Shown: piece after piece, positions 1 to 59,202 of the stretch | Layout of the letters: every line of letters begins with the position of its first letter | How positions within the stretch are numbered: the stretch's first letter is position 1 | NCBI RefSeq assembly: GCF_054482595.1 | Contig: NZ_CM137008.1 | Length of the DNA: 64,000 nucleotides | Direction: 5' to 3' (one strand) | Notes under the pieces: model-generated | Database searches by the model: none | Seen by the model: the letters and a program-made list of their open reading frames with translations, nothing else | What the model was told of the DNA's origin: nothing | Program-made: the position numbers and the translations under genes

Positions 1-182
1 GTGTTCAGGGGGCGGATATGAAGACGCTGGCACAAATTAGCGTTCGTCAGCCTTTGCCTCTGCAAGGATTACAATTCCGTGAACTGTTTAGCTGGTTATC
101 CAGTTCGCTGCGTTCGGTTTCCCGCTCCACGCCGGGAACGGAAGTTGTGCTGGAAGCGCCAAAAGGCTGGACGTCAGTGTGA
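1..182 (+). CDS. yegL: vWA-domain protein YegL, 3' end only (partial)
   Basis: Frame 3 is open from the window edge to TGA at 180-182; position upstream of yegK matches K-12 order; stop overlaps the GTG start of next gene. Confidence 0.6.
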
Positions 183-940
183 GCTGGCGTCTGGTCTATG
201 CATCAACCGTTGGAACGTCGCACATCAGCGCGGACTTGCCTTGTCAGGATGCCTGCCAGATGCAGATTGCCTGGTTAAATGACCAGCAGCCATTATTGTC
301 GGTATTTGTCGCTGATGGCGCAGGCAGTGTCTCGCAGGGTGGCGAAGGCGCGATGCTCGCCGTCAATGAAGCGATGGCTTATATGTCGCAAAAAGTGCAG
401 GGCGGGGAATTGGGGCTTAATGATGTCCTCGCCACAAATATGGTACTGACCATTCGTCAACGACTTTTTGCCGAGGCGGAAGCCAAAGAATTAGCGGTTC
501 GCGATTTTGCCTGCACATTTCTGGGACTGATTTCATCGCCTGACGGCACCTTGATTATGCAGATTGGCGATGGCGGCGTGGTGGTAGATTTGGGTCACGG
601 TCTGCAATTGCCTCTCACGCCGATGGCGGGTGAATATGCCAACATGACGCATTTCATTACCGACGAAGATGCCGTTTCCAGACTGGAAACTTTCACCAGC
701 ACTGGGCGTGCGCACAAAGTTGCAGCATTTACGGATGGTATCCAGCGACTGGCGTTAAATATGCTGGATAATTCTCCTCATGTGCCTTTCTTTACCCCGT
801 TTTTCAATGGACTGGCGGCAGCAACGCAGGAACAACTCGATTTATTACCTGAATTGTTAAAGCAGTTTTTGTCCAGCCCGGCGGTAAACGAGCGTACGGA
901 TGATGATAAAACGTTGGCACTGGCGCTGTGGGCAGAGTGA
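179..940 (+). CDS. yegK: PP2C-family Ser/Thr protein phosphatase
   Basis: 253-aa ORF with GTG start; metal-binding motifs typical of PP2C (VADGAGS, DG near C-term); K-12 yegK/pphC length and position. Confidence 0.85.
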
Positions 941-949
941 GTTTCTCAT

Positions 950-977
950 GGCGGTTGAAGACAACAATTCAACCGCC
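950..977. terminator. Hairpin between convergent yegK and yegJ, possible bidirectional terminator
   Basis: 10-bp inverted repeat ggcggttgaa / ttcaaccgcc with 8-nt loop; weak T-run. Confidence 0.4.
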
Positions 978-1004
978 AGTTTAAACAATAAATATAACGG
1001 CTGA

Positions 1005-1466
1005 TTAGCGAACTAATTTTGCTCTTAGCTCGTCGGCTTCTTCTTTTGGATAGGTGACCAATAAAGGATCAATGGTATAACCGCCGTAAATTTTATCCCC
1101 GCGCGTATACATCCAGTCTGAAATATCTTCTTTCTTGATTTTCCACTCCTGGCCATATTCTACGTTTGTAACAATACCAGGGTCATTGCTGATTACGCCA
1201 ATAAACATGCCGTTAGAATAAGTGACATCCGTAAGCCAGAAATGCTCGGTTCTTCCGTGATCGGTTATCGGGGCTTTGACTGCGAAAGTATCGGCATCTT
1301 TTTTATTCATAACCTCGATGAATTTATCGGTTTCTTTCCGCGCATGTTTAATCGCGTCAGACATCGCTTGTTTATCATAACCTCCCGTCACTAACGTATC
1401 CGAAACTTCACTAAAGCCCGCGGTAGTAAAAAATAGCAGACTCAACATAAGTAATATCTTTTTCAT
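1005..1466 (-). CDS. yegJ: Exported DUF2314-like protein with N-terminal signal peptide
   Basis: 153-aa ORF, hydrophobic N-terminus MKKILLMLSLLFFTTAGFS; K-12 yegJ length and position. Confidence 0.85.
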   Translation of the reverse strand: MKKILLMLSLLFFTTAGFSEVSDTLVTGGYDKQAMSDAIKHARKETDKFIEVMNKKDADTFAVKAPITDHGRTEHFWLTDVTYSNGMFIGVISNDPGIVTNVEYGQEWKIKKEDISDWMYTRGDKIYGGYTIDPLLVTYPKEEADELRAKLVR

Positions 1467-1665
1467 TTTTTCTCCAGAATCCCTTTGTAGTCAAAGTTAG
1501 CAAAAACCTGTGGAAGTTAATCATTATCAGGCCGAAATTGAATTGTATCCTGATAAAATTGCATTATCATTTTTATTCTTGAGTGGGTTTTCCCCATATA
1601 GAAATAATTTTAATGGTTAGTTGTTATTATTCATTGAAATATAATATAACTACCCGCGAAATATT

Positions 1666-3612
1666 ATGAAAACAAATATAAAAGTATTTACATCGACAGG
1701 TGAATTGACCACTCTTGGCCGTGAACTGGGCAAAGGTGGTGAAGGCGCGGTTTATGATATCGAGGAGTTTGTCGATAGCGTCGCCAAGATTTATCACACG
1801 CCGCCACCCGCCTTAAAACAGGACAAACTTGCCTTTATGGCTGCGACAGCTGACGCGCAGTTGTTGAATTATGTCGCCTGGCCGCAGGCAACGCTTCACG
1901 GTGGACGAGGCGGAAAAGTTATCGGTTTTATGATGCCAAAAGTTTCTGGTAAAGAACCGATTCATATGATCTATAGCCCGGCACATCGTCGCCAGAGTTA
2001 CCCTCATTGTGCGTGGGATTTTCTACTCTATGTTGCGCGCAATATTGCTTCATCTTTTGCTACGGTTCACGAGCACGGGCACGTCGTGGGTGACGTAAAC
2101 CAGAACAGTTTTATGGTAGGTCGCGACAGCAAAGTGGTACTGATTGATAGCGACTCCTTTCAGATTAACGCCAATGGCACACTGCATTTATGCGAAGTCG
2201 GCGTGTCGCATTTTACGCCGCCAGAGCTACAAACCTTGTCGTCATTTGTCGGCTTTGAACGCACAGAAAATCACGATAATTTTGGCCTTGCGTTGCTGAT
2301 TTTTCACGTCTTGTTTGGTGGCCGGCATCCTTATTCTGGTGTGCCGCTTATCTCTGATGCGGGTAATGCGCTGGAGACGGATATTACCCATTTCCGTTAT
2401 GCCTACGCGTCAGATAATCAGCGACGTGGTTTAAAACCGCCGCCACGATCGATTCCGCTATCGATGTTACCGAGTGATGTTGAAGCCATGTTTCAGCAGG
2501 CATTCACGGAAAGTGGCGTGGCAACCGGGCGTCCGACGGCTAAAGCGTGGGTAGCGGCACTTGATTCTCTGCGCCAACAGTTAAAGAAATGTCCCGTTTC
2601 GGCAATGCATGTTTATCCCGCTCATTTGACCGACTGCCCGTGGTGTGCGCTGGATAATCAAGGCGTTATCTATTTTATTGATCTCGGCGAAGAGGTCATT
2701 ACCACCAGCGGTGATTTTGTGCTGGCGAAAGTCTGGGCGATGGTGATGGCGTCAGTAGCACCGCCAGCATTGCAATTGCCATTACCCGATCATTTCCAAC
2801 CGACTGGCAGGCCGCTTCCTTTAGGCCTGTTACGGCGCGAATACATCATTCTGATTGAGATCGCACTGTCAGCGTTATCGCTGTTGCTTTGCGGCCTTCA
2901 GGCAGAACCGCGTTATATTATTTTGGTTCCTGTGCTGTCGGCTATCTGGATTATTGGCAGTCTGACAAGCAAAGCGTACAAAGCAGAAGTTCAGCAACGC
3001 CGTGAGGCATTTAATCGCGCGAAAATGGACTATGACCATTTAGTCAGCCAGATCCAACAGTTGGGCGGGCTGGAAGGTTTTATCGCCAAACGGACGATGC
3101 TCGAAAAAATGAAGGACGAAATGCTCGGGTTACCGGAAGAAGAAAAACGTGCTCTGGCAGCACTTCACGACACCGCAAGGGAACGGCAGAAGCAGAAGTT
3201 TCTGGAGGGATTTTTTATTGATGTTGCCTCTATTCCCGGCGTTGGCCCTGCGCGTAAAGCGGCGTTACGGTCCTTTGGTATTGAAACAGCAGCGGATGTT
3301 ACCCGTCGTGGGGTTAAGCAAGTGAAAGGGTTTGGTGATCATCTGACCCAGGCAGTTATCGACTGGAAAGCAAGTTGCGAACGCCGTTTTGTGTTCAGGC
3401 CGAATGAAGCGGTAACGCCAGCAGACAGACAAGCGGTAATGGCGAAAATGACCGCCAAACGACATCGGCTGGAATCGACGTTGACTGTCGGCGCGACAGA
3501 GTTGCAGCGATTCCGCCTTCATGCTCCAGCACGGACCATGCCGTTGATGGAACCGTTACGTCAGGCGGCAGAAAAACTGACTCAGGCGCAGGCTGATTTA
3601 AGCCGCTGCTGA
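1666..3612 (+). CDS. yegI: Ser/Thr protein kinase-like protein with two predicted TM helices and C-terminal helix-hairpin-helix
   Basis: 648-aa ORF; kinase-like N-terminal region (GKGGEGAVY glycine loop, HGHVVGDVN catalytic-loop-like); hydrophobic segments ~2836-2970; HhH-like IPGVGPARKAALRSFGIETAADV. Confidence 0.9.
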   Translation: MKTNIKVFTSTGELTTLGRELGKGGEGAVYDIEEFVDSVAKIYHTPPPALKQDKLAFMAATADAQLLNYVAWPQATLHGGRGGKVIGFMMPKVSGKEPIHMIYSPAHRRQSYPHCAWDFLLYVARNIASSFATVHEHGHVVGDVNQNSFMVGRDSKVVLIDSDSFQINANGTLHLCEVGVSHFTPPELQTLSSFVGFERTENHDNFGLALLIFHVLFGGRHPYSGVPLISDAGNALETDITHFRYAYASDNQRRGLKPPPRSIPLSMLPSDVEAMFQQAFTESGVATGRPTAKAWVAALDSLRQQLKKCPVSAMHVYPAHLTDCPWCALDNQGVIYFIDLGEEVITTSGDFVLAKVWAMVMASVAPPALQLPLPDHFQPTGRPLPLGLLRREYIILIEIALSALSLLLCGLQAEPRYIILVPVLSAIWIIGSLTSKAYKAEVQQRREAFNRAKMDYDHLVSQIQQLGGLEGFIAKRTMLEKMKDEMLGLPEEEKRALAALHDTARERQKQKFLEGFFIDVASIPGVGPARKAALRSFGIETAADVTRRGVKQVKGFGDHLTQAVIDWKASCERRFVFRPNEAVTPADRQAVMAKMTAKRHRLESTLTVGATELQRFRLHAPARTMPLMEPLRQAAEKLTQAQADLSRC

Positions 3613-3623
3613 GCCATTTTCTT

Positions 3624-4976
3624 TTAACGAAATACCACTTCTGCCCAGCGTGCCAGCCCGGCGGTGACGGAGCCAAAGTCATCGCCGCCTGCAATCGGAA
3701 TGCCCGGCAACTGTTCTGCCAGCGCTTTTTTAATCAGCGGCGAACGGGCGCTACCGCCGGTCAGGTAGATAACGTCCGGTTTTTCCTGGGCGTTATCCAG
3801 CGCCAGTTGCACCTGTTCCAGAATCCGCGCCAGTGGCTGGCTGAGGGCGCTTTCCAGCCCTTGCTGGCTAATCAGCGTAGCCAGTTCATCGCTGATAAAC
3901 GGCAGTGAGGCGCGGGTTTCCGCAGTGCTTGAAAGGGCGATTTTGCTCTCTTCTGCGCTACGCACCAGGCGATAGCTTAAACGCTGACGCCAGACTTTCT
4001 GTAACAGGGCCACTTTTTCCGGTTCGCGGGCATCGCGTACCAGATCGTTAAGCAGACGACCGTTGGCACTACTGTAGAAATCACTCTGTGCAGGAACGTC
4101 GTTGATGGCAACCGCATTCCACCACGGCAGAATCGGCAGGGCGATGCCTTTTTCGGTTTCGCCACCCATGCCCAGTAACGGCATCAGGTTTTTAAACGCC
4201 AGCGCGATATCCAGATCGTTACCGCCAATACGGCAACCACTGTGACCCAGCAGGCTGGCTTCACGATCGAGACGCGAACGCCACTGCGGCCCCATCAGCA
4301 GCAATGAACAGTCAGTCGTACCACCGCCGATATCCACCACCAGCACCCGTTTTTCTTCCTGCAAGGTGGCTTCGTAATCCAGCCCAGCCGCGACCGGCTC
4401 GTACTGGAATACCACGTCCCTGAATCCGGCACGCTTCGCCGCGCGTTCCAGAATCCCTTGCGCCTGGGTGTTTGCTTCATCACCGCCCAGCCCCTGGAAG
4501 TTGATCGGACGACCAATCACCGCCTGAGTAATCGCTTCTGGCAGCTGTGCCTGCGCCTGCTGGCGAATGTGCAACATCATTGCGCAGACCAGATCCTCAA
4601 ACAGCGCTACCTGCTGCGGTTTTAAGCCGCTGGCACCGAGGAACGATTTTGGTGATTTCACAAACCACACTTCTTCTGGATCATCAATGTACTGTGCCAG
4701 TGAGGAAAGACCGAACTGCACGCTTTTCGCCGTAACATCGATATCTTCTTCGCGGTTATAACGAATCGCCCGACGTAACAGCGCCTGCGTTTCATCGTCG
4801 TCTGCCGGAACATCATGATGGCGGTACAGCCATTCGCTTACCGCTTCACGCGTTGGCGCGCAAAGCATTGAAGGCAGCAGCGTGCTGTCGTTTTCCATTT
4901 TTAGCAAATGCGGTTTACCGTCACGCATGACCGCCACTGAACAGTTTGCTGTACCGTAATCAAAACCAATAAACAC
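3624..4976 (-). CDS. yegD: Hsp70-family (actin-like ATPase) chaperone YegD
   Basis: 450-aa ORF, N-terminal FIGFDYGTANCSVAV phosphate-1 motif of Hsp70/actin fold. Confidence 0.9.
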   Translation of the reverse strand: MFIGFDYGTANCSVAVMRDGKPHLLKMENDSTLLPSMLCAPTREAVSEWLYRHHDVPADDDETQALLRRAIRYNREEDIDVTAKSVQFGLSSLAQYIDDPEEVWFVKSPKSFLGASGLKPQQVALFEDLVCAMMLHIRQQAQAQLPEAITQAVIGRPINFQGLGGDEANTQAQGILERAAKRAGFRDVVFQYEPVAAGLDYEATLQEEKRVLVVDIGGGTTDCSLLLMGPQWRSRLDREASLLGHSGCRIGGNDLDIALAFKNLMPLLGMGGETEKGIALPILPWWNAVAINDVPAQSDFYSSANGRLLNDLVRDAREPEKVALLQKVWRQRLSYRLVRSAEESKIALSSTAETRASLPFISDELATLISQQGLESALSQPLARILEQVQLALDNAQEKPDVIYLTGGSARSPLIKKALAEQLPGIPIAGGDDFGSVTAGLARWAEVVFR

Positions 4977-5109
4977 GAATTAATCCCCATGCCGGTGAAG
5001 AAGGGGCGTGACTTTAGCGAAATGTTGCCGTCGCGACAACCGGAATATGAAAGCAAAGCGTAGCGTCTGAATAACGTTTATGCTGAAAGCGGATGAATAA
5101 GGAGATGCG

Positions 5110-5958
5110 ATGTATACCCTGAACTGGCAGCCGCCGTATGACTGGTCGTGGATGTTGGGATTTCTCGCCGCCCGTGCGGTGAGCGGTGTGGAAACGGTCG
5201 CGGACAGTTATTATGCCCGTAGTCTGGCGGTGGGCGAATATCGCGGCGTGGTGACTGCTATTCCGGATATAGCCCGCCATACTCTGCACATAAATTTAAG
5301 TGCAGGTTTAGAACCTGTTGCCGCAGAGTGTCTGGCGAAAATGAGCCGCCTGTTTGATCTGCAATGTAACCCACAAATTGTTAACGGTGCGTTGGGCAGG
5401 TTAGGCGCGGCGCGGCCCGGATTGCGTTTACCCGGCAGTGTTGATGCTTTTGAGCAGGGCGTGCGGGCGATTTTAGGCCAACTGGTGAGCGTGGCGATGG
5501 CGGCAAAATTGACTGCCAAAGTGGTACAGCTTTATGGCGAACGGCTGGATGATTTTCCGGAGTATATCTGCTTCCCCACGCCTCAGCGGCTGGCAGCAGC
5601 CGACCCGCAGGCATTAAAAGCGTTAGGTATGCCGTTGAAACGGGCAGAGGCGCTGATTCATCTGGCAAATGCGGCGCTGGAGGGCACCTTACCAATGACA
5701 ATACCGGGCGATGTGGAGCAGGCGATGAAAACGCTGCAAACTTTTCCGGGTATCGGGCGCTGGACGGCGAATTATTTTGCTTTGCGTGGCTGGCAGACGA
5801 AAGATGTTTTCCTGCCGGATGATTATCTGATTAAACAGCGATTTCCGGGAATGACACCGGCACAAATCCGCCTTTATGCCGAACGCTGGAAGCCCTGGCG
5901 TTCTTATGCGCTGTTGCATATCTGGTATACGGAAGGCTGGCAACCAGACGAAGCATGA
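5110..5958 (+). CDS. alkA: 3-methyladenine DNA glycosylase II
   Basis: 282-aa ORF, HhH-GPD glycosylase region (FPGIGRWTANYFALRG), matches AlkA. Confidence 0.9.
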   Translation: MYTLNWQPPYDWSWMLGFLAARAVSGVETVADSYYARSLAVGEYRGVVTAIPDIARHTLHINLSAGLEPVAAECLAKMSRLFDLQCNPQIVNGALGRLGAARPGLRLPGSVDAFEQGVRAILGQLVSVAMAAKLTAKVVQLYGERLDDFPEYICFPTPQRLAAADPQALKALGMPLKRAEALIHLANAALEGTLPMTIPGDVEQAMKTLQTFPGIGRWTANYFALRGWQTKDVFLPDDYLIKQRFPGMTPAQIRLYAERWKPWRSYALLHIWYTEGWQPDEA

Positions 5959-5965
5959 CGTTGGT

Positions 5966-6050
5966 CGCCGGATGCGGTGCGAGCGCCTTATCCGGCCTGG
6001 AGAATGAGCGATTTGTAGGCATGATAAGACGCGTTAGCGTCGCATCAGGC
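5966..6050. repeat. REP (repetitive extragenic palindrome) pair between convergent alkA and dgcE
   Basis: gccggatgcg...cgccttatccggcc and gtaggc...gataagacgcg...cgtcgcatcaggc REP consensus. Confidence 0.7.
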
Positions 6051-6066
6051 GATGGGGAAGCACGCC

Positions 6067-9000
6067 TCAGTTAATCGCGAAATAACTACTATTCACCAGC
6101 AAATCCAGCGGTTGGGCATCGGCAATCACATCACCATAAATCAGATCGACGCCGATGCCAGAAAGCGTATCCATCACTAAGGGTAAAACGACTGGCCCGG
6201 CGATGGTTTTCATCCCGAGTCGCTGAGCGTGCCCCTGAATAATCGTAATCAGCATCTCATCCATCAAATTACCCTGCACGTTGGCGCATAACTCACCATC
6301 AAGTAGCAGGTAATCTGCCATATTCGCTTTCAGCGAGTTGAAGATTTGCAGATCGCGGCCCACCTGGCTGAGTATTATCCGACATCCCGCCAGCCGCAGT
6401 TTTTGCACGCTTTCTGCGTGATCTAAAATCGCTTCAGCCGGAATAATCAGATGTAATAACCGTGGTGGTAGAGGGCTATTTTCCAGCTGCTCAAGCAGAT
6501 CATTCACCAGCGTGGCGCTACTCAAACCGGCAACGGAAAGGGGGAGGGCGATGCTTATGCCTTTACTGGCAACCGCTTTTGCGGCCTGCTGGAAAAATTC
6601 GTGGAATACCCGGCGGTCAAAAGCATGGCTAAGCGCCGGATCGCTGAAGCTACGACGAAATGTTTGTTCATCAATAATCTCGCCTTCGCAACTCCAGAGC
6701 TTAAGTGAAATCAGCCACAAATTACGCGCTTCCGGGATCCGTGGCGAAGCGACACCGTGGGCCATCATCATCAACTGATTCTCTTTAATCATCCGCCACT
6801 GTTCATCAAGCGACATCGCCGCCCGTTCGCTATGTGCGGCAGCTTGCTGCGGTTCGTAAACCGTCACCCGGCCCCGGCCACCATTTTTGGAGGCATAACA
6901 GGCGATATCAGCCTGCGACATCACTTCTGCCGCCTGATGATTGTTGTCATCGATCAAGGTAATCCCGGCGCTGGCACCTACCCGATGTACACGTCCTTCC
7001 CAGATAAAGTGATAGTCATTCACAGCACTGATAATACGTGTAGCGATAAAACGCGCACTTTCGACATTGCAGTCTGGCAGCAGCAGACCAAATTCATCAC
7101 CGCCGAGCCGCGCCAGCACGTCGCTGGAGCGCAGCATGCTCAGCATCAACGACGCCAGTTCGCGCAGCAAAGCGTCGCCAGCGGCATGCCCGGCGCTGTC
7201 ATTCACCGCTTTAAAGCGATCAAGATCGATAAACACCAGTGCATGTCGCTGATGCGTACTGTTTACCGTTTGCAGCAGGATACGCAGTTGTTTCTCAAAA
7301 CTGGCGCGGTTGGCGAGATGCGTCAGTGCATCATGGGAGGCGCTGTAGCTCAGCTGGCGCAGCATTTTGCGTGATTCGGTAACGTCCTGAATCACCAGAA
7401 CCGAACCAATATTGCTGCCGTCCAGAGTACTTAACGGCGTAATACTGTAATGCACGTCGTAACTGCCGCCGCTCCGACAGTGCAACACCACATCTTGTTC
7501 GATCGCGGAACGTGAGGTGTCGGCACTGTAAATGTTCTCCATTAATGGTCCGTTGTCGCCAAAAGTAATATGCAACACCGTCAGGAGCGGAACACCTAAC
7601 GCTTCTTCCTGCGTCCAGCCGCTCATCTTCTCCGCCACTGGATTCATAAAGGTAATTTTCATCGCCATATCAATACAGACCACGGCTTCGCCGATGGAGT
7701 CCAGCGTAATGTGCAGGCGCTCTTTTTCCTGAAACAATGCCTCGTTAAGCTGTTTAACCTCGGTCATATCCATATTAATGCCGAGCAGGCGTTCGACTTC
7801 GCCTTCTTTATTCAGTACCCGGTTGGCGAGGGCGCGGATATGGCGGATGCCATCTTTCACGGCAATGCGAAATTCCAGCTTAAAGGGCGAGCGTGATTGC
7901 AACGAATCACGAATCACTTTTTCGGCATGCTGGCGATCTTCCGGCAGCACGCACTCGTACCACACCTGCCAGTTCGGTTTGATATGCGGAGGAATTTCAT
8001 ACAGCTCGAACATCCGCTTATCCCAGCTAAAAATATTCGGCTTCAACTCCCACTCCCAGATGCCAATCCCGCCCGCTTCGTTAGCCAGCGTGATGCGTTC
8101 CATCAGTTGCTGATTCACCTGTTCGGTGCGTTTTAGCTCGTTAATGTCTTCAATCTGAGCGATAAAATAGAGCGGCGTGCCATCCGTGTGGCGCACCAGT
8201 GAGACGGCAAGCAACGCCCAGACAACATCGCCATTACGGTTGTAGTAGCGTTTTTCCATTGAATAGGTGTTTATTTCACCGCTTATCAGCTTTTCAACCT
8301 GTTGGAGATCTTTATTGAGATCCTCCGGCCAGGTCAGTTGCTGAAAGGTGAGTCCGCGCAGCTCTTCCTGACTGTAACCGAGAAACTGGCAGAGTGCTTT
8401 GTTGGATTGCAGCCATTGTCCCTCGGTGCCCACTAATGCCATGCCGATGGCGGAATATTCCATGGCGTTCCGAAAGCGGGTTTCGCTTTCGGAAATGTGT
8501 TTGCGTTCCGCACGAAAGGCATACATCACCATGGTCATGATGTTGGCGGGCAGCAGGATCAGCAAAAACGGTAGCCACGGCATATGGGTCATCAGGTACG
8601 TACGCGGCGTAGCAAGCAGGGAGGGATCCGCGGCCATCATCAGCGACACCATCATCACCGTGGTAAGGAAGATCAAAAAGGCTTCCATTCGTGGCAGGCG
8701 CACGGCGCTCCACATCAACAGCACAATAATGAAAGTAAAAGGCCACGGCAGATACAGCATCGAAAGCCAGCTTAACGTCAGTGTGATGGCTAACGTAAGC
8801 AGCGACTCAAAAAGCAATCGTGGGTTGCGATGGCGCAGCAGATAGTGTGGTTTAAATAACAATCCCAGCGGCACCAGTGCCAGAGCGCCGATGGATTCTG
8901 ACAGTACCCATATCAAAAATGCCCTGAGAGGATCGTCTCCGGGCGTCAGCAGGACAACCAGAACACCCCCCAACAGAGGCGGAACAATGGCGCTGCCGAG

Positions 9001-14748: not shown

Positions 14749-15190
14749 AGTAAGTACAAAACCTATTCGTTGTATGACAAATGTCACAATTCGATCATGG
14801 ATAAATCGGGGCAAAAATGCAATGTTGTAGCACTATTTATCTCATATTATTTGAGGGTAATAACCTCACATTATCCCTGAATTAAAAGTGGTAATAATAA
14901 AACATTATTTAAGAAATATCGCATGTGGAGACACTATATTAAATATTGTCAACCTAAAGAAACTCCTAAAAACCATATTGAATGACACTTAATATAATTC
15001 TTAAAAATAGCCAATTACCGAATTGTTATCTTGCCTGCTATTCCGTTAGCTGTAACACTTCCTCCTGCATTATTGGAAAGCCAATATTCAATTACCATAA
15101 TGTCACCTTATATTCGGAAGTTAATTTCCGTAATAACCCTTTCTCATCAACGACTGCATGCTGAGAGGGTGTGAAAAATTAAACTAAATC

Positions 15191-15229
15191 AGTGTATTGG
15201 TAGCTAAAAAGCCAGGGGCGGTAGCGTGT
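15191..15229 (+). promoter_or_regulatory. JUMPStart element with ops (RfaH recruitment) site in the wza leader
   Basis: cagtg...ggtagc...agccaggggcggtagcgtg; ops core GGCGGTAGCGTG at 15217-15228. Confidence 0.8.
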
Positions 15230-29755: not shown

Positions 29756-29844
29756 ATGAATGCGAAACCGAGATGTAAATAACGACAAAAACAAAATTGG
29801 CCGTTTCGGTCAGGGCCAACTATTGCCTGAAAAAGGGTAACGAC

Positions 29845-34187: not shown

Positions 34188-34358
34188 AAACGCCTTATCC
34201 ATCCTACGGTTCTGTGCTCGGGTCTTGTAGGCCTGATAAGACGCGTCAGCGTCGCATCAGGCACTGAATGCCGGATGCGGCGTGAACGCCTTATCCGGCC
34301 TACGGTTCTGTGCTCGGGTCTTGTAGGCCTGATAAGACGTGCCAGCGTCGCATCAGGC
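34188..34358. repeat. BIME: two near-identical ~72-bp REP-containing units in tandem
   Basis: Unit at 34191-34262 and unit at 34287-34358 differ at only a few positions. Confidence 0.75.
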
Positions 34359-48678: not shown

Positions 48679-48821
48679 GTGCACAGAAAACCCCCAGCTA
48701 GGCTGGGGGTTCCGGAAAGCTATCAGCTTTGAGCCAGTTATTAAAACCCCTTTTGATTTGTTAAAACACCTTGCGGTCTGGCAACTGCAAGTGTCAAACA
48801 AGAAATCAAAAGGGGGTCCCA

Positions 48822-59006: not shown

Positions 59007-59061
59007 TTTCTTATTCCTCTTTAAACCTGTCTGAACCGTTATCAACCGCGCAATAAAAAAG

Positions 59062-59094
59062 CCCCCGGAAGGTGATCTTCCGGGGGCTTTCTCA
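59062..59094 (-). terminator. his attenuator terminator hairpin
   Basis: Minus strand reads agcccccggaag-atcac-cttccgggggct followed by UUUUUAUU, between hisL and hisG. Confidence 0.85.
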
Positions 59095-59151
59095 TGCGTT
59101 CATGCACCACTGGAAGATCTGAATGTCTTCCAGCACACATCGCCTGAAAGA

Positions 59152-59202
59152 CTAGTCAGGATGATGGTGATGATGGTGGTGTTTAAATTGAACGCGTGTC
59201 AT
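59152..59202 (-). CDS. hisL: his operon leader peptide
   Basis: Minus strand encodes MTRVQFKHHHHHHHPD-stop, with seven consecutive His codons. Confidence 0.9.
   Translation of the reverse strand: MTRVQFKHHHHHHHPD

Follow-up and report, generated by a model that had tools for sequence, protein, structure and literature searches.

The left end of a 64,000-nucleotide stretch (hereafter called the window) of contig NZ_CM137008.1 (RefSeq assembly GCF_054482595.1) raises the question of whether the vWA protein, PP2C phosphatase, DUF2314 protein and kinase-like protein encoded at positions 1-3612 act together, and in what capacity. A first reading made from the letters alone (the sequence-only reading) had treated all four genes, yegL-yegK-yegJ-yegI, as one module and likened it to the vWA-phosphatase-kinase triads of Ter-type loci. 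We find that the real unit consists of three genes, yegL, pphC (yegK) and yegI, which form a tight operon that is split here by a segment carrying yegJ. This triad is a Ser/Thr phospho-switch of the TerY-P type, whose three genes form a self-contained and horizontally mobile cassette.

A six-frame listing of open reading frames (ORFs) over positions 1-8000 recovered the four genes in the order and at the coordinates that the sequence-only reading had given them. On the plus strand, the 3' end of yegL (1-182; codons 160-219 and the stop, the ORF running off the left edge) is followed by pphC (179-940; 253 aa), whose start overlaps the yegL stop by 4 nt, and then by yegI (1666-3612; 648 aa); yegJ (1005-1466; 153 aa) lies between the latter two on the minus strand. 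Positions 1-5000 are 100% identical to the Escherichia coli chromosome NZ_CP019245 (megablast), the RefSeq annotation of which reads, in order, yegL, pphC, yegJ, yegI and yegD, with YegL described as a vWA domain protein, PphC as a PP2C phosphatase, YegI as a protein kinase and YegD as an Hsp70-like chaperone. By megablast, the locus is matched in 5423 of 5426 complete E. coli genomes, 5379 of them with at least 80% of the 1-5000 query covered.

Whether the genes co-occur beyond E. coli was a check set beforehand, and the result supports the three-gene unit: a vWA gene (~220 aa), a PP2C_2 gene (~255 aa) and a kinase gene (610-720 aa) follow each other in this order at 14 of 14 loci outside Escherichia. 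These include Piscinibacter, Chromobacterium, Klebsiella spallanzanii and five metagenomic contigs, as well as plasmids of Pseudomonas amygdali, Pseudomonas fulva, Rhizobium rhizogenes, Sphingobium and Deinococcus radiophilus. The three genes usually overlap or abut, the flanks are wholly unrelated from one locus to the next, and the order persists down to ~31-35% YegI identity. The triad is thus spread over four classes (Alpha-, Beta- and Gammaproteobacteria and Deinococcus), in many cases on plasmids; further full-length copies were detected by tblastn on plasmids of Cupriavidus, Mesorhizobium and Sinorhizobium. A phmmer search with YegI against 1.84 billion representative sequences returned 9,789 matches at E <= 1e-3 and 3,264 at E <= 1e-30, and more than 100 clusters (50% identity) align over the full ~645 aa at 35-50% identity. 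Among triad relatives YegL is the best-conserved component, with 58-85% identity versus 31-62% for YegI.

The fourth gene does not share this distribution. In E. coli O157:H7, yegL, pphC and yegI are consecutive, joined by 4-nt stop/start overlaps, and yegJ is lacking both from this locus and from all 14 triad loci outside Escherichia. When positions 880-1740 of the window are compared with the O157 allele (L002:3880-4020), yegJ is seen to lie in a segment of 785 bp (~932-1716) with a G+C content of 0.37-0.41 against ~0.5 in the flanks. This segment replaces ~56 bp of the O157 layout, namely the end of pphC (its final two codons), the ATGA overlap and the start of yegI (~17 codons), and it was found in 1933 of the 5426 complete E. 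coli genomes (36%). Since it is missing from 64% of E. coli genomes, from O157 and from every triad locus of another genus, yegJ is not part of the module. That an exported YegJ should be a working part of a four-gene system is therefore largely refuted, and we consider it very unlikely, even though yegJ is located between pphC and yegI and has in common with the latter a divergent intergenic region of 199 bp. The sequence-only reading was correct in describing YegJ as a DUF2314 protein divergent to yegI (Pfam DUF2314, E = 2.9e-25) with predicted export, as judged from its N-terminal Sec-type signal-like sequence (MKKILLMLSLLFFTTAGFS); such a location sets it apart from the triad domains, which are cytoplasmic.

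The insertion has left its mark on yegI itself. The N-terminus of YegI that the insert encodes in AT-rich sequence, MKTNIKVFTSTGELTTLG, is divergent from that of O157, MKPTLYTATGECVTPG, yet it fits the family consensus and therefore looks like a divergent yegI 5' end that the insert brought along. This suggests that recombination with a foreign yegI-type locus introduced the yegJ segment. In the 36% of E. coli genomes that carry the insert, yegI is thereby given an upstream region of its own. Just past the pphC stop, between the convergent pphC and yegJ and inside the insert, a perfect 10-bp inverted repeat, GGCGGTTGAA-(8 nt)-TTCAACCGCC, occupies positions 950-977 and is possibly a bidirectional terminator; the terminator scan missed it because no T-run follows. 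Otherwise, promoter and terminator scans of the locus returned weak consensus matches only. In one E. coli genome, an unrelated second site has a match to the first 64 bp of the insert, a hint of a small repeated element. Descriptions of the yegJ polymorphism have been published previously. According to a 2026 study (PMC13232886), YegJ interacts with the N-terminal half of RNase E in a bacterial two-hybrid assay, and yegD mRNA increases upon yegJ overexpression. These findings are hard to square with the clear Sec-type signal sequence.

Only the last 60 codons of yegL, and hence almost none of its VWA domain, lie inside the window, so that the vWA call had to be made from the record of the identical genome. 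There, full-length YegL matches Pfam VWA (1.8e-9; residues 23-173) and also VWA_2, and the residues of its metal ion-dependent adhesion site (MIDAS), D27, S29, S31, T94 and D131, are invariant across YegL-type proteins and the TerY1 and TerY2 proteins of a ter-type plasmid introduced below. While the vWA/MIDAS domain is encoded upstream, the part within the window is a conserved Ser-rich tail of the TerY family that ends in GW. It bears the signature F189-x-W-x-S193-x-S195...S200, in which F189, S193, S195 and S200 are invariant in 13 sequences, TerY1 and TerY2 included. PphC matches Pfam PP2C_2 at 6.4e-52 and is known as a Mn2+-dependent PP2C-type Ser/Thr phosphatase that dephosphorylates YegI (Rajagopalan & Dworkin). 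Between the strain of the window and the O157 allele, the ratios of nonsynonymous to synonymous substitution (dN/dS) are 0.04 for yegL, 0.17 for pphC and 0.14 for yegI, so all three genes are under purifying selection.

The kinase assignment of the third gene required more than domain searches. The sequence-only reading had called vWA, PP2C, DUF2314 and kinase domains; Pfam bears out VWA, PP2C_2 and DUF2314, whereas YegI has no match to Pfam Pkinase, the only Pfam hit being a marginal HHH_5 alignment, and it is a kinase by its fold, its residues and published assays. The protein lacks canonical motifs, having VGD and DSD (161-163) where HRD and DFG would be expected, and a phmmer search against PDB sequences gave nothing below E = 0.1. 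Residues 1-303 (positions 1666-2574) nevertheless correspond to an atypical Hanks-type kinase domain with a glycine loop (G22-G27), K41 and catalytic D143/N145. In an alignment of 48 full-length relatives (33-62% identity), the ATP-binding K41, D143, N145 and D161/D163 are invariant. An AlphaFold2 model built on this alignment reached a predicted local distance difference test score (pLDDT) of 93.4 and a predicted TM-score (pTM) of 0.80, and Foldseek searches with residues 1-300 retrieved PknB, PknA and Aurora B (E ~1e-7) as well as BRAF, the target-normalised TM-scores lying at 0.62-0.72. In a second set, consisting of 31 length-variant relatives, 27 sequences do match Pkinase. YegI has been shown to autophosphorylate on activation-loop serines with a preference for Mn2+ and second-order kinetics; the K39D and D141N variants (REL606 numbering) are inactive and the DSD motif is indispensable (Rajagopalan & Dworkin). 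Predicted fold, invariant catalytic residues, Pkinase-matching relatives and published assays together establish YegI as a kinase.

Beyond the kinase domain, YegI carries three further parts. Residues 306-331 (2581-2658, plus strand) form a zinc-ribbon-like element with the motif C309-x5-H315-x8-C324-P-W-C327, modelled as two short strands and a helix; C309, H315, C324 and C327 are invariant in both the 48- and the 31-sequence alignments. It is followed by a transmembrane hairpin (residues ~391-411 and 417-437; 2836-2985), evident from hydropathy peaks and from helices in the model, in agreement with the reported two-pass inner-membrane topology in which both termini are cytoplasmic (Rajagopalan & Dworkin). 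The cytoplasmic C-terminal module (2986-3609) begins with a coiled coil reaching to residue ~513, and likely carries an (HhH)2 DNA-binding module at residues 517-573 (3214-3384), made of two helix-hairpin-helix (HhH) motifs, IPGVGPARKAAL... and VKGFGDHLTQAV..., before a ~60-residue terminal helix (585-647). A separate model of residues 436-648 has a pLDDT of 95.4. Several searches point to the (HhH)2 assignment: Pfam HHH_5 aligns with residues 517-552 at E = 0.0025, and at 9.8e-6 in a relative; G527, G555 and G557 of the two G-h-G hairpins are kept in at least 90% of sequences; a profile of the module matches the (HhH)2 extension of archaeal L32e at E = 0.045; a local Foldseek match to the Rad51 N-terminal domain has a probability of 0.94; and labels in JGI and NCBI are likewise HhH. 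In some relatives, the C-terminus of YegI is replaced by Zn_ribbon_Top1, SH3 or TPR modules. If the oligonucleotide-binding (OB) fold of the TerY-P kinases discussed below is counted, nucleic-acid-binding modules are a recurring theme at the kinase C-terminus.

We compared the triad with the systems from which the TerY-P name derives. According to the accounts of Anantharaman, Iyer & Aravind (2012) given in PMC11090510 and PMC4978471, the TerY-P triad includes a kinase fused to a zinc ribbon, and the association with ter genes is, as far as these accounts go, frequent but not obligatory. A ter-type plasmid of K. pneumoniae, CP138680 (L014), encodes a VWA protein, a TerD-family protein, a further VWA protein, a TerY-C protein, a 577-aa PP2C and a 499-aa kinase. 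YegL matches the TerY of this plasmid at 2e-16 (tblastn) and can be aligned end to end with TerY1 and TerY2; PphC matches the C-terminal half of the plasmid PP2C at 3e-7 (BLASTP); and YegI matches the plasmid kinase at 2e-4, the similarity being confined to the last C-lobe helix and the C...CPxC zinc ribbon. Because all three parts have homologues in the ter-plasmid triad, the vWA-phosphatase-kinase interpretation is supported. The two versions share the gene order vWA, PP2C, kinase, the MIDAS, the Ser-rich tail and the PP2C_2 core, and in both the kinase ends in an RPTA..W..AL helix followed by the C...CPxC zinc ribbon. Whereas the plasmid version has three vWA paralogues along with a TerD-family gene, the 577-aa phosphatase, a soluble 499-aa kinase and ter neighbours, that of E. 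coli is minimal, with one 219-aa vWA protein and a 253-aa PP2C, and its kinase bears in addition a transmembrane hairpin, a coiled coil and a likely (HhH)2. The contiguous, co-directional genes expected of TerY-P systems are found in O157 and at 14 of 14 loci outside Escherichia, and are interrupted in the window by the 785-bp segment. The Ter link drawn by the sequence-only reading thus holds for the homology of the three proteins but not for the surroundings: the locus has no ter genes proper, and PADLOC makes no TerY-P call.

This kinship invites the hypothesis first put forward for TerY-P, in which the triad would be a metal-sensing switch, the YegL MIDAS reading divalent metal or tellurite-type stress and gating a Mn2+-dependent pair of enzymes. 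YegL is indeed of the TerY family with an invariant MIDAS, both YegI and PphC prefer Mn2+, and heavy-metal ATPase or cation-transporter genes lie near the triad at two loci (L018 and L019), as does the TerC-family gene yegH 9.5 kb off in E. coli. These metal-related neighbours are sporadic, though, and genes of the TerD, TerZ or TerB families adjoin the YegI-type triad at none of the loci examined. Furthermore, the hypothesis leaves the conserved zinc-ribbon, HhH and Top1-finger modules of the kinase unexplained, and we regard it as quite unlikely.

Other phosphorylation-based systems offer partial parallels. The best PADLOC matches of YegI are PD-T4-6 kinase models, at a weak 1.2e-4 and over the kinase core only. 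In Staphylococcus, abortive infection is mediated by the Hanks-type kinase effector Stk2, with its cognate phosphatase Stp as a possible brake. The triad resembles Stk2/Stp and the E. coli PD-T4-6 in having a Hanks-type kinase as the putative effector and a possible cognate phosphatase brake, but both of these lack a vWA partner, the membrane hairpin and the HhH module. A vWA protein wired to Ser/Thr kinases and a phosphatase is also encountered in the ArnA/ArnB system of Sulfolobus (with ArnC/D and PP2A) and in DRA0331-0334 of Deinococcus; unlike the triad, these systems need an FHA-domain partner and employ other kinase and phosphatase subfamilies; the likeness considered here is one of domain types. 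The vWA protein ArnB is phosphorylated close to the C-terminal end, and therefore provides a precedent for the YegL tail as the proposed acceptor. The Deinococcus vWA-kinase-FHA-PP2C operon has been linked to DNA-damage-responsive kinases. In the TerY-P anti-phage system of Gao et al. (2020), the kinase carries an OB fold, and TerY-P-like triads protect against T7-like phages. Our triad is likewise a stand-alone three-gene cassette of vWA, PP2C and Ser/Thr kinase, the last with a C-terminus that is probably of nucleic-acid-binding type. YegI differs in having the hairpin, coiled coil and likely HhH module instead of a C-terminal OB fold or β-barrel, and the protection against T7-like phages pertains to the systems of Gao et al.

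Clues to function come from gene neighbourhoods and from published phenotypes. At least five of the longer non-Escherichia loci have recognised conflict genes within 8 kb of the triad. One (L003) is surrounded by genes for a BrxR/WYL regulator, JetB, and ScoMcrA-like, SLFN-helicase, MazG-like and NYN proteins; another (L004) has AbiH, a KAP NTPase and Tn7-like TniQ/TniB; GmrSD, a type I restriction-modification system and SymE are found at a third (L005), and type I restriction-modification together with Mrr at a fourth (L009). The plasmid locus of R. rhizogenes (L017) has DUF262 and UvrD genes nearby, and L018 an integrase and a GIY-YIG gene. The association of the triad with defence genes, unquantified and seen through neighbourhoods, is suggestive, and it is from these neighbourhoods that we infer a defence role. 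In addition, a screen of overproduced proteins with an SOS reporter listed 208 'DNA-damaging proteins' (5% of genes), with YegL among the ten strongest clones and YegI at 5-fold or more, and overexpression of YegI slows or impairs growth.

On these grounds we tentatively favour, with somewhat less than even confidence, a conflict or stress system, most likely one directed against invading DNA or phage in an abortive-infection-like manner, over a housekeeping regulator. In such a switch, PphC would hold YegI off in the resting cell, and YegL would be the regulated partner, either as a phospho-acceptor through its Ser-rich tail or as a MIDAS/metal-dependent adaptor or sensor. The cytoplasmic zinc ribbon and (HhH)2 of YegI, held at the membrane on the coiled-coil stalk, would tie activation or output to DNA, and if the kinase were to prevail, DNA damage (with SOS induction) and growth arrest would ensue. 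A more specific version, which we deem unlikely, is that nearly every E. coli strain possesses here a stand-alone immune sensor: the membrane-tethered (HhH)2 and zinc ribbon would detect DNA that enters, or is damaged, at the membrane and drive trans-autophosphorylation past PphC, the signal then passing through the phosphorylated YegL tail to DNA damage and growth arrest by which infection is aborted. If true, the best-studied bacterium would have an immunity pathway based on a DNA-sensing Ser/Thr kinase.

A number of observations speak against the conflict interpretation and its molecular underpinnings. The E. coli locus is core and occupies a fixed site among housekeeping genes (5423 of 5426 genomes), which is atypical of defence cargo; three of the non-Escherichia loci (L007, L010 and L012) also have housekeeping flanks. 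Triad expression is very low in all conditions tried so far, and a literature search found no report of phage protection or of a substrate for yegL-pphC-yegI. Membrane proteins are generally enriched among the proteins that damage DNA upon overproduction, and for this reason the SOS result of YegI could be non-specific. The E-values for HhH are marginal, and structure searches with the C-terminal module gave, apart from the Rad51 match, coiled coils only. Finally, YegL scores no better than E = 0.032 with the PADLOC TerY model, and none of the TerY-P models detects PphC or YegI. The last of these points is weak, as the canonical ter-plasmid triad, taken as a positive control, also scores nothing with the PADLOC TerY-P models, which are evidently narrow.

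As an alternative, which we rate as less probable, the triad may be a domesticated chromosomal stress module of stationary phase, envelope stress or the endogenous DNA-damage response, in which YegI acts on ordinary host proteins, PphC resets the system and no conflict role is involved. Consistent with domestication, the locus is core, syntenic and under purifying selection, and yegI is reportedly detectable in stationary phase only. A connection with DNA damage could be seen in the DNA-repair genes lying nearby (alkA in E. coli, LexA at L007, umuD-like and Y-family polymerase genes on two Pseudomonas megaplasmids), in the Deinococcus operon tied to DNA-damage kinases and in the SOS induction by overproduced YegL and YegI. 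Against this stand the patchy occurrence across classes, an identity of ~60% between E. coli and Betaproteobacteria, the frequent plasmids and the unrelated flanks, a pattern that fits a mobile cassette rather than a conserved regulon member; restriction and abortive-infection genes, moreover, recur as neighbours, and no host phenotype or substrate has been reported in the literature. It could also be argued that the E. coli locus is a silent relic devoid of current function, since no condition with robust expression has been reported, yegJ interrupts the operon in a third of strains, and truncated or fused forms of YegI exist in databases. The dN/dS values of 0.04-0.17 and the near-universal retention of intact genes argue for selection, however, and make a relic highly improbable.

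The locus as such is already known: its genes are named, two of the three proteins have been characterised biochemically (J Bacteriol 2018 and FEBS Lett 2020), the notion of the triad goes back to 2012, and the yegJ polymorphism has already been reported. The sequence-only reading called the system under-characterised. This agrees with the literature as regards trigger and target in E. coli, but not as regards the biochemistry of PphC and YegI, the topology of YegI or the yegJ polymorphism, all of which are published. What is new here is the conservation of the operon at 14 of 14 loci, which span four classes and include plasmids; the precise limits of the yegJ replacement; the homology of all three proteins with those of the ter-plasmid triad, to which the shared YegL tail and the invariant CHCC ribbon belong; and the link to the DNA-damage screen. 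YegI and PphC are the only eukaryote-like kinase and PP2C phosphatase pair known in E. coli, and two of the three triad proteins already score as inducers of DNA damage. An immune or DNA-surveillance role, if it holds, would explain both a near-universal E. coli operon and a wider family of more than 3000 sequence clusters; failing that, the pair would be a routine, partly characterised signalling pair.

Downstream of yegI, a convergent ORF of 450 aa occupies positions 3624-4976 on the minus strand. YegD is the sole protein of the locus to match its NCBIfam equivalog, the other hits being kinase and PP2C fragments far below cutoff. The gene yegD was considered as a fourth component and rejected, as it never adjoins the triad in any other genus. 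A phage origin of the triad was also considered. YegL, PphC and YegI all match full-length, near-identical PHROGs families of unknown function (phrog_28389, phrog_37072 and phrog_37888), and the triad locus occurs in no phage genome of a 50,697-record collection; we rejected this origin and regard the PHROG entries as probably stemming from prophage predictions that had taken in chromosomal DNA. One E. coli protein of 602 aa (P0035) combines a PP2C_2 match with a region, 74% of its length, that is 94% identical to YegI, and is apparently a PphC-YegI fusion that arises by frameshift at the ATGA overlap in some strains.

Further neighbours were recorded at individual loci. On the R. rhizogenes plasmid (L017:2401-9575), the His-Xaa-Ser radical-SAM genes hxsB-hxsC-hxsA lie directly upstream of the triad and an SH3 protein gene downstream; in A. 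vaccinii (L020:1614-6266), hxsBCA and SH3 genes flank only a 293-aa remnant that corresponds to the C-terminal module of YegI. A distant metagenomic triad (L012:1065-2534) has a radical-SAM/SPASM gene four genes upstream. On the two Pseudomonas megaplasmids (L015:3110-4811 and L016:2608-4306), genes for the umuD-like S24 peptidase and the Y-family DNA polymerase are located upstream of the triad, ~0.8-1.3 kb away and with no more than two small hypothetical genes in between.

In E. coli (NZ_CP019245), the locus is flanked upstream by mdtABCD and ibs toxin genes and downstream by alkA, dgcE, udk, dcd, asmA and yegH. The last of these, annotated as TerC-family (L001:22165-23000; from ~13.2 kb onward in the window), is the sole 'Ter' gene in the vicinity of the E. 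coli triad; its position ~9.5 kb past yegI is probably coincidental. In O157:H7, the ibs type I toxin array that lies upstream of yegL comprises three copies (L002:1587-2302), versus two in the strain type of the window (L001:7914-8302), and dgcE is annotated as a frameshifted pseudogene in the O157:H7 strain (L002:8325-10266). Elsewhere in the window, seven matches exceed Rfam gathering thresholds (15190-15228, 29791-29840, 34230-34300, 40845-40883, 48689-48812, 59053-59176 and 61916-61990); they comprise two JUMPstart elements, an algC RNA, naRNA4, STnc490, a His operon leader and STnc240, the JUMPstart elements presumably marking the colanic-acid and O-antigen clusters.

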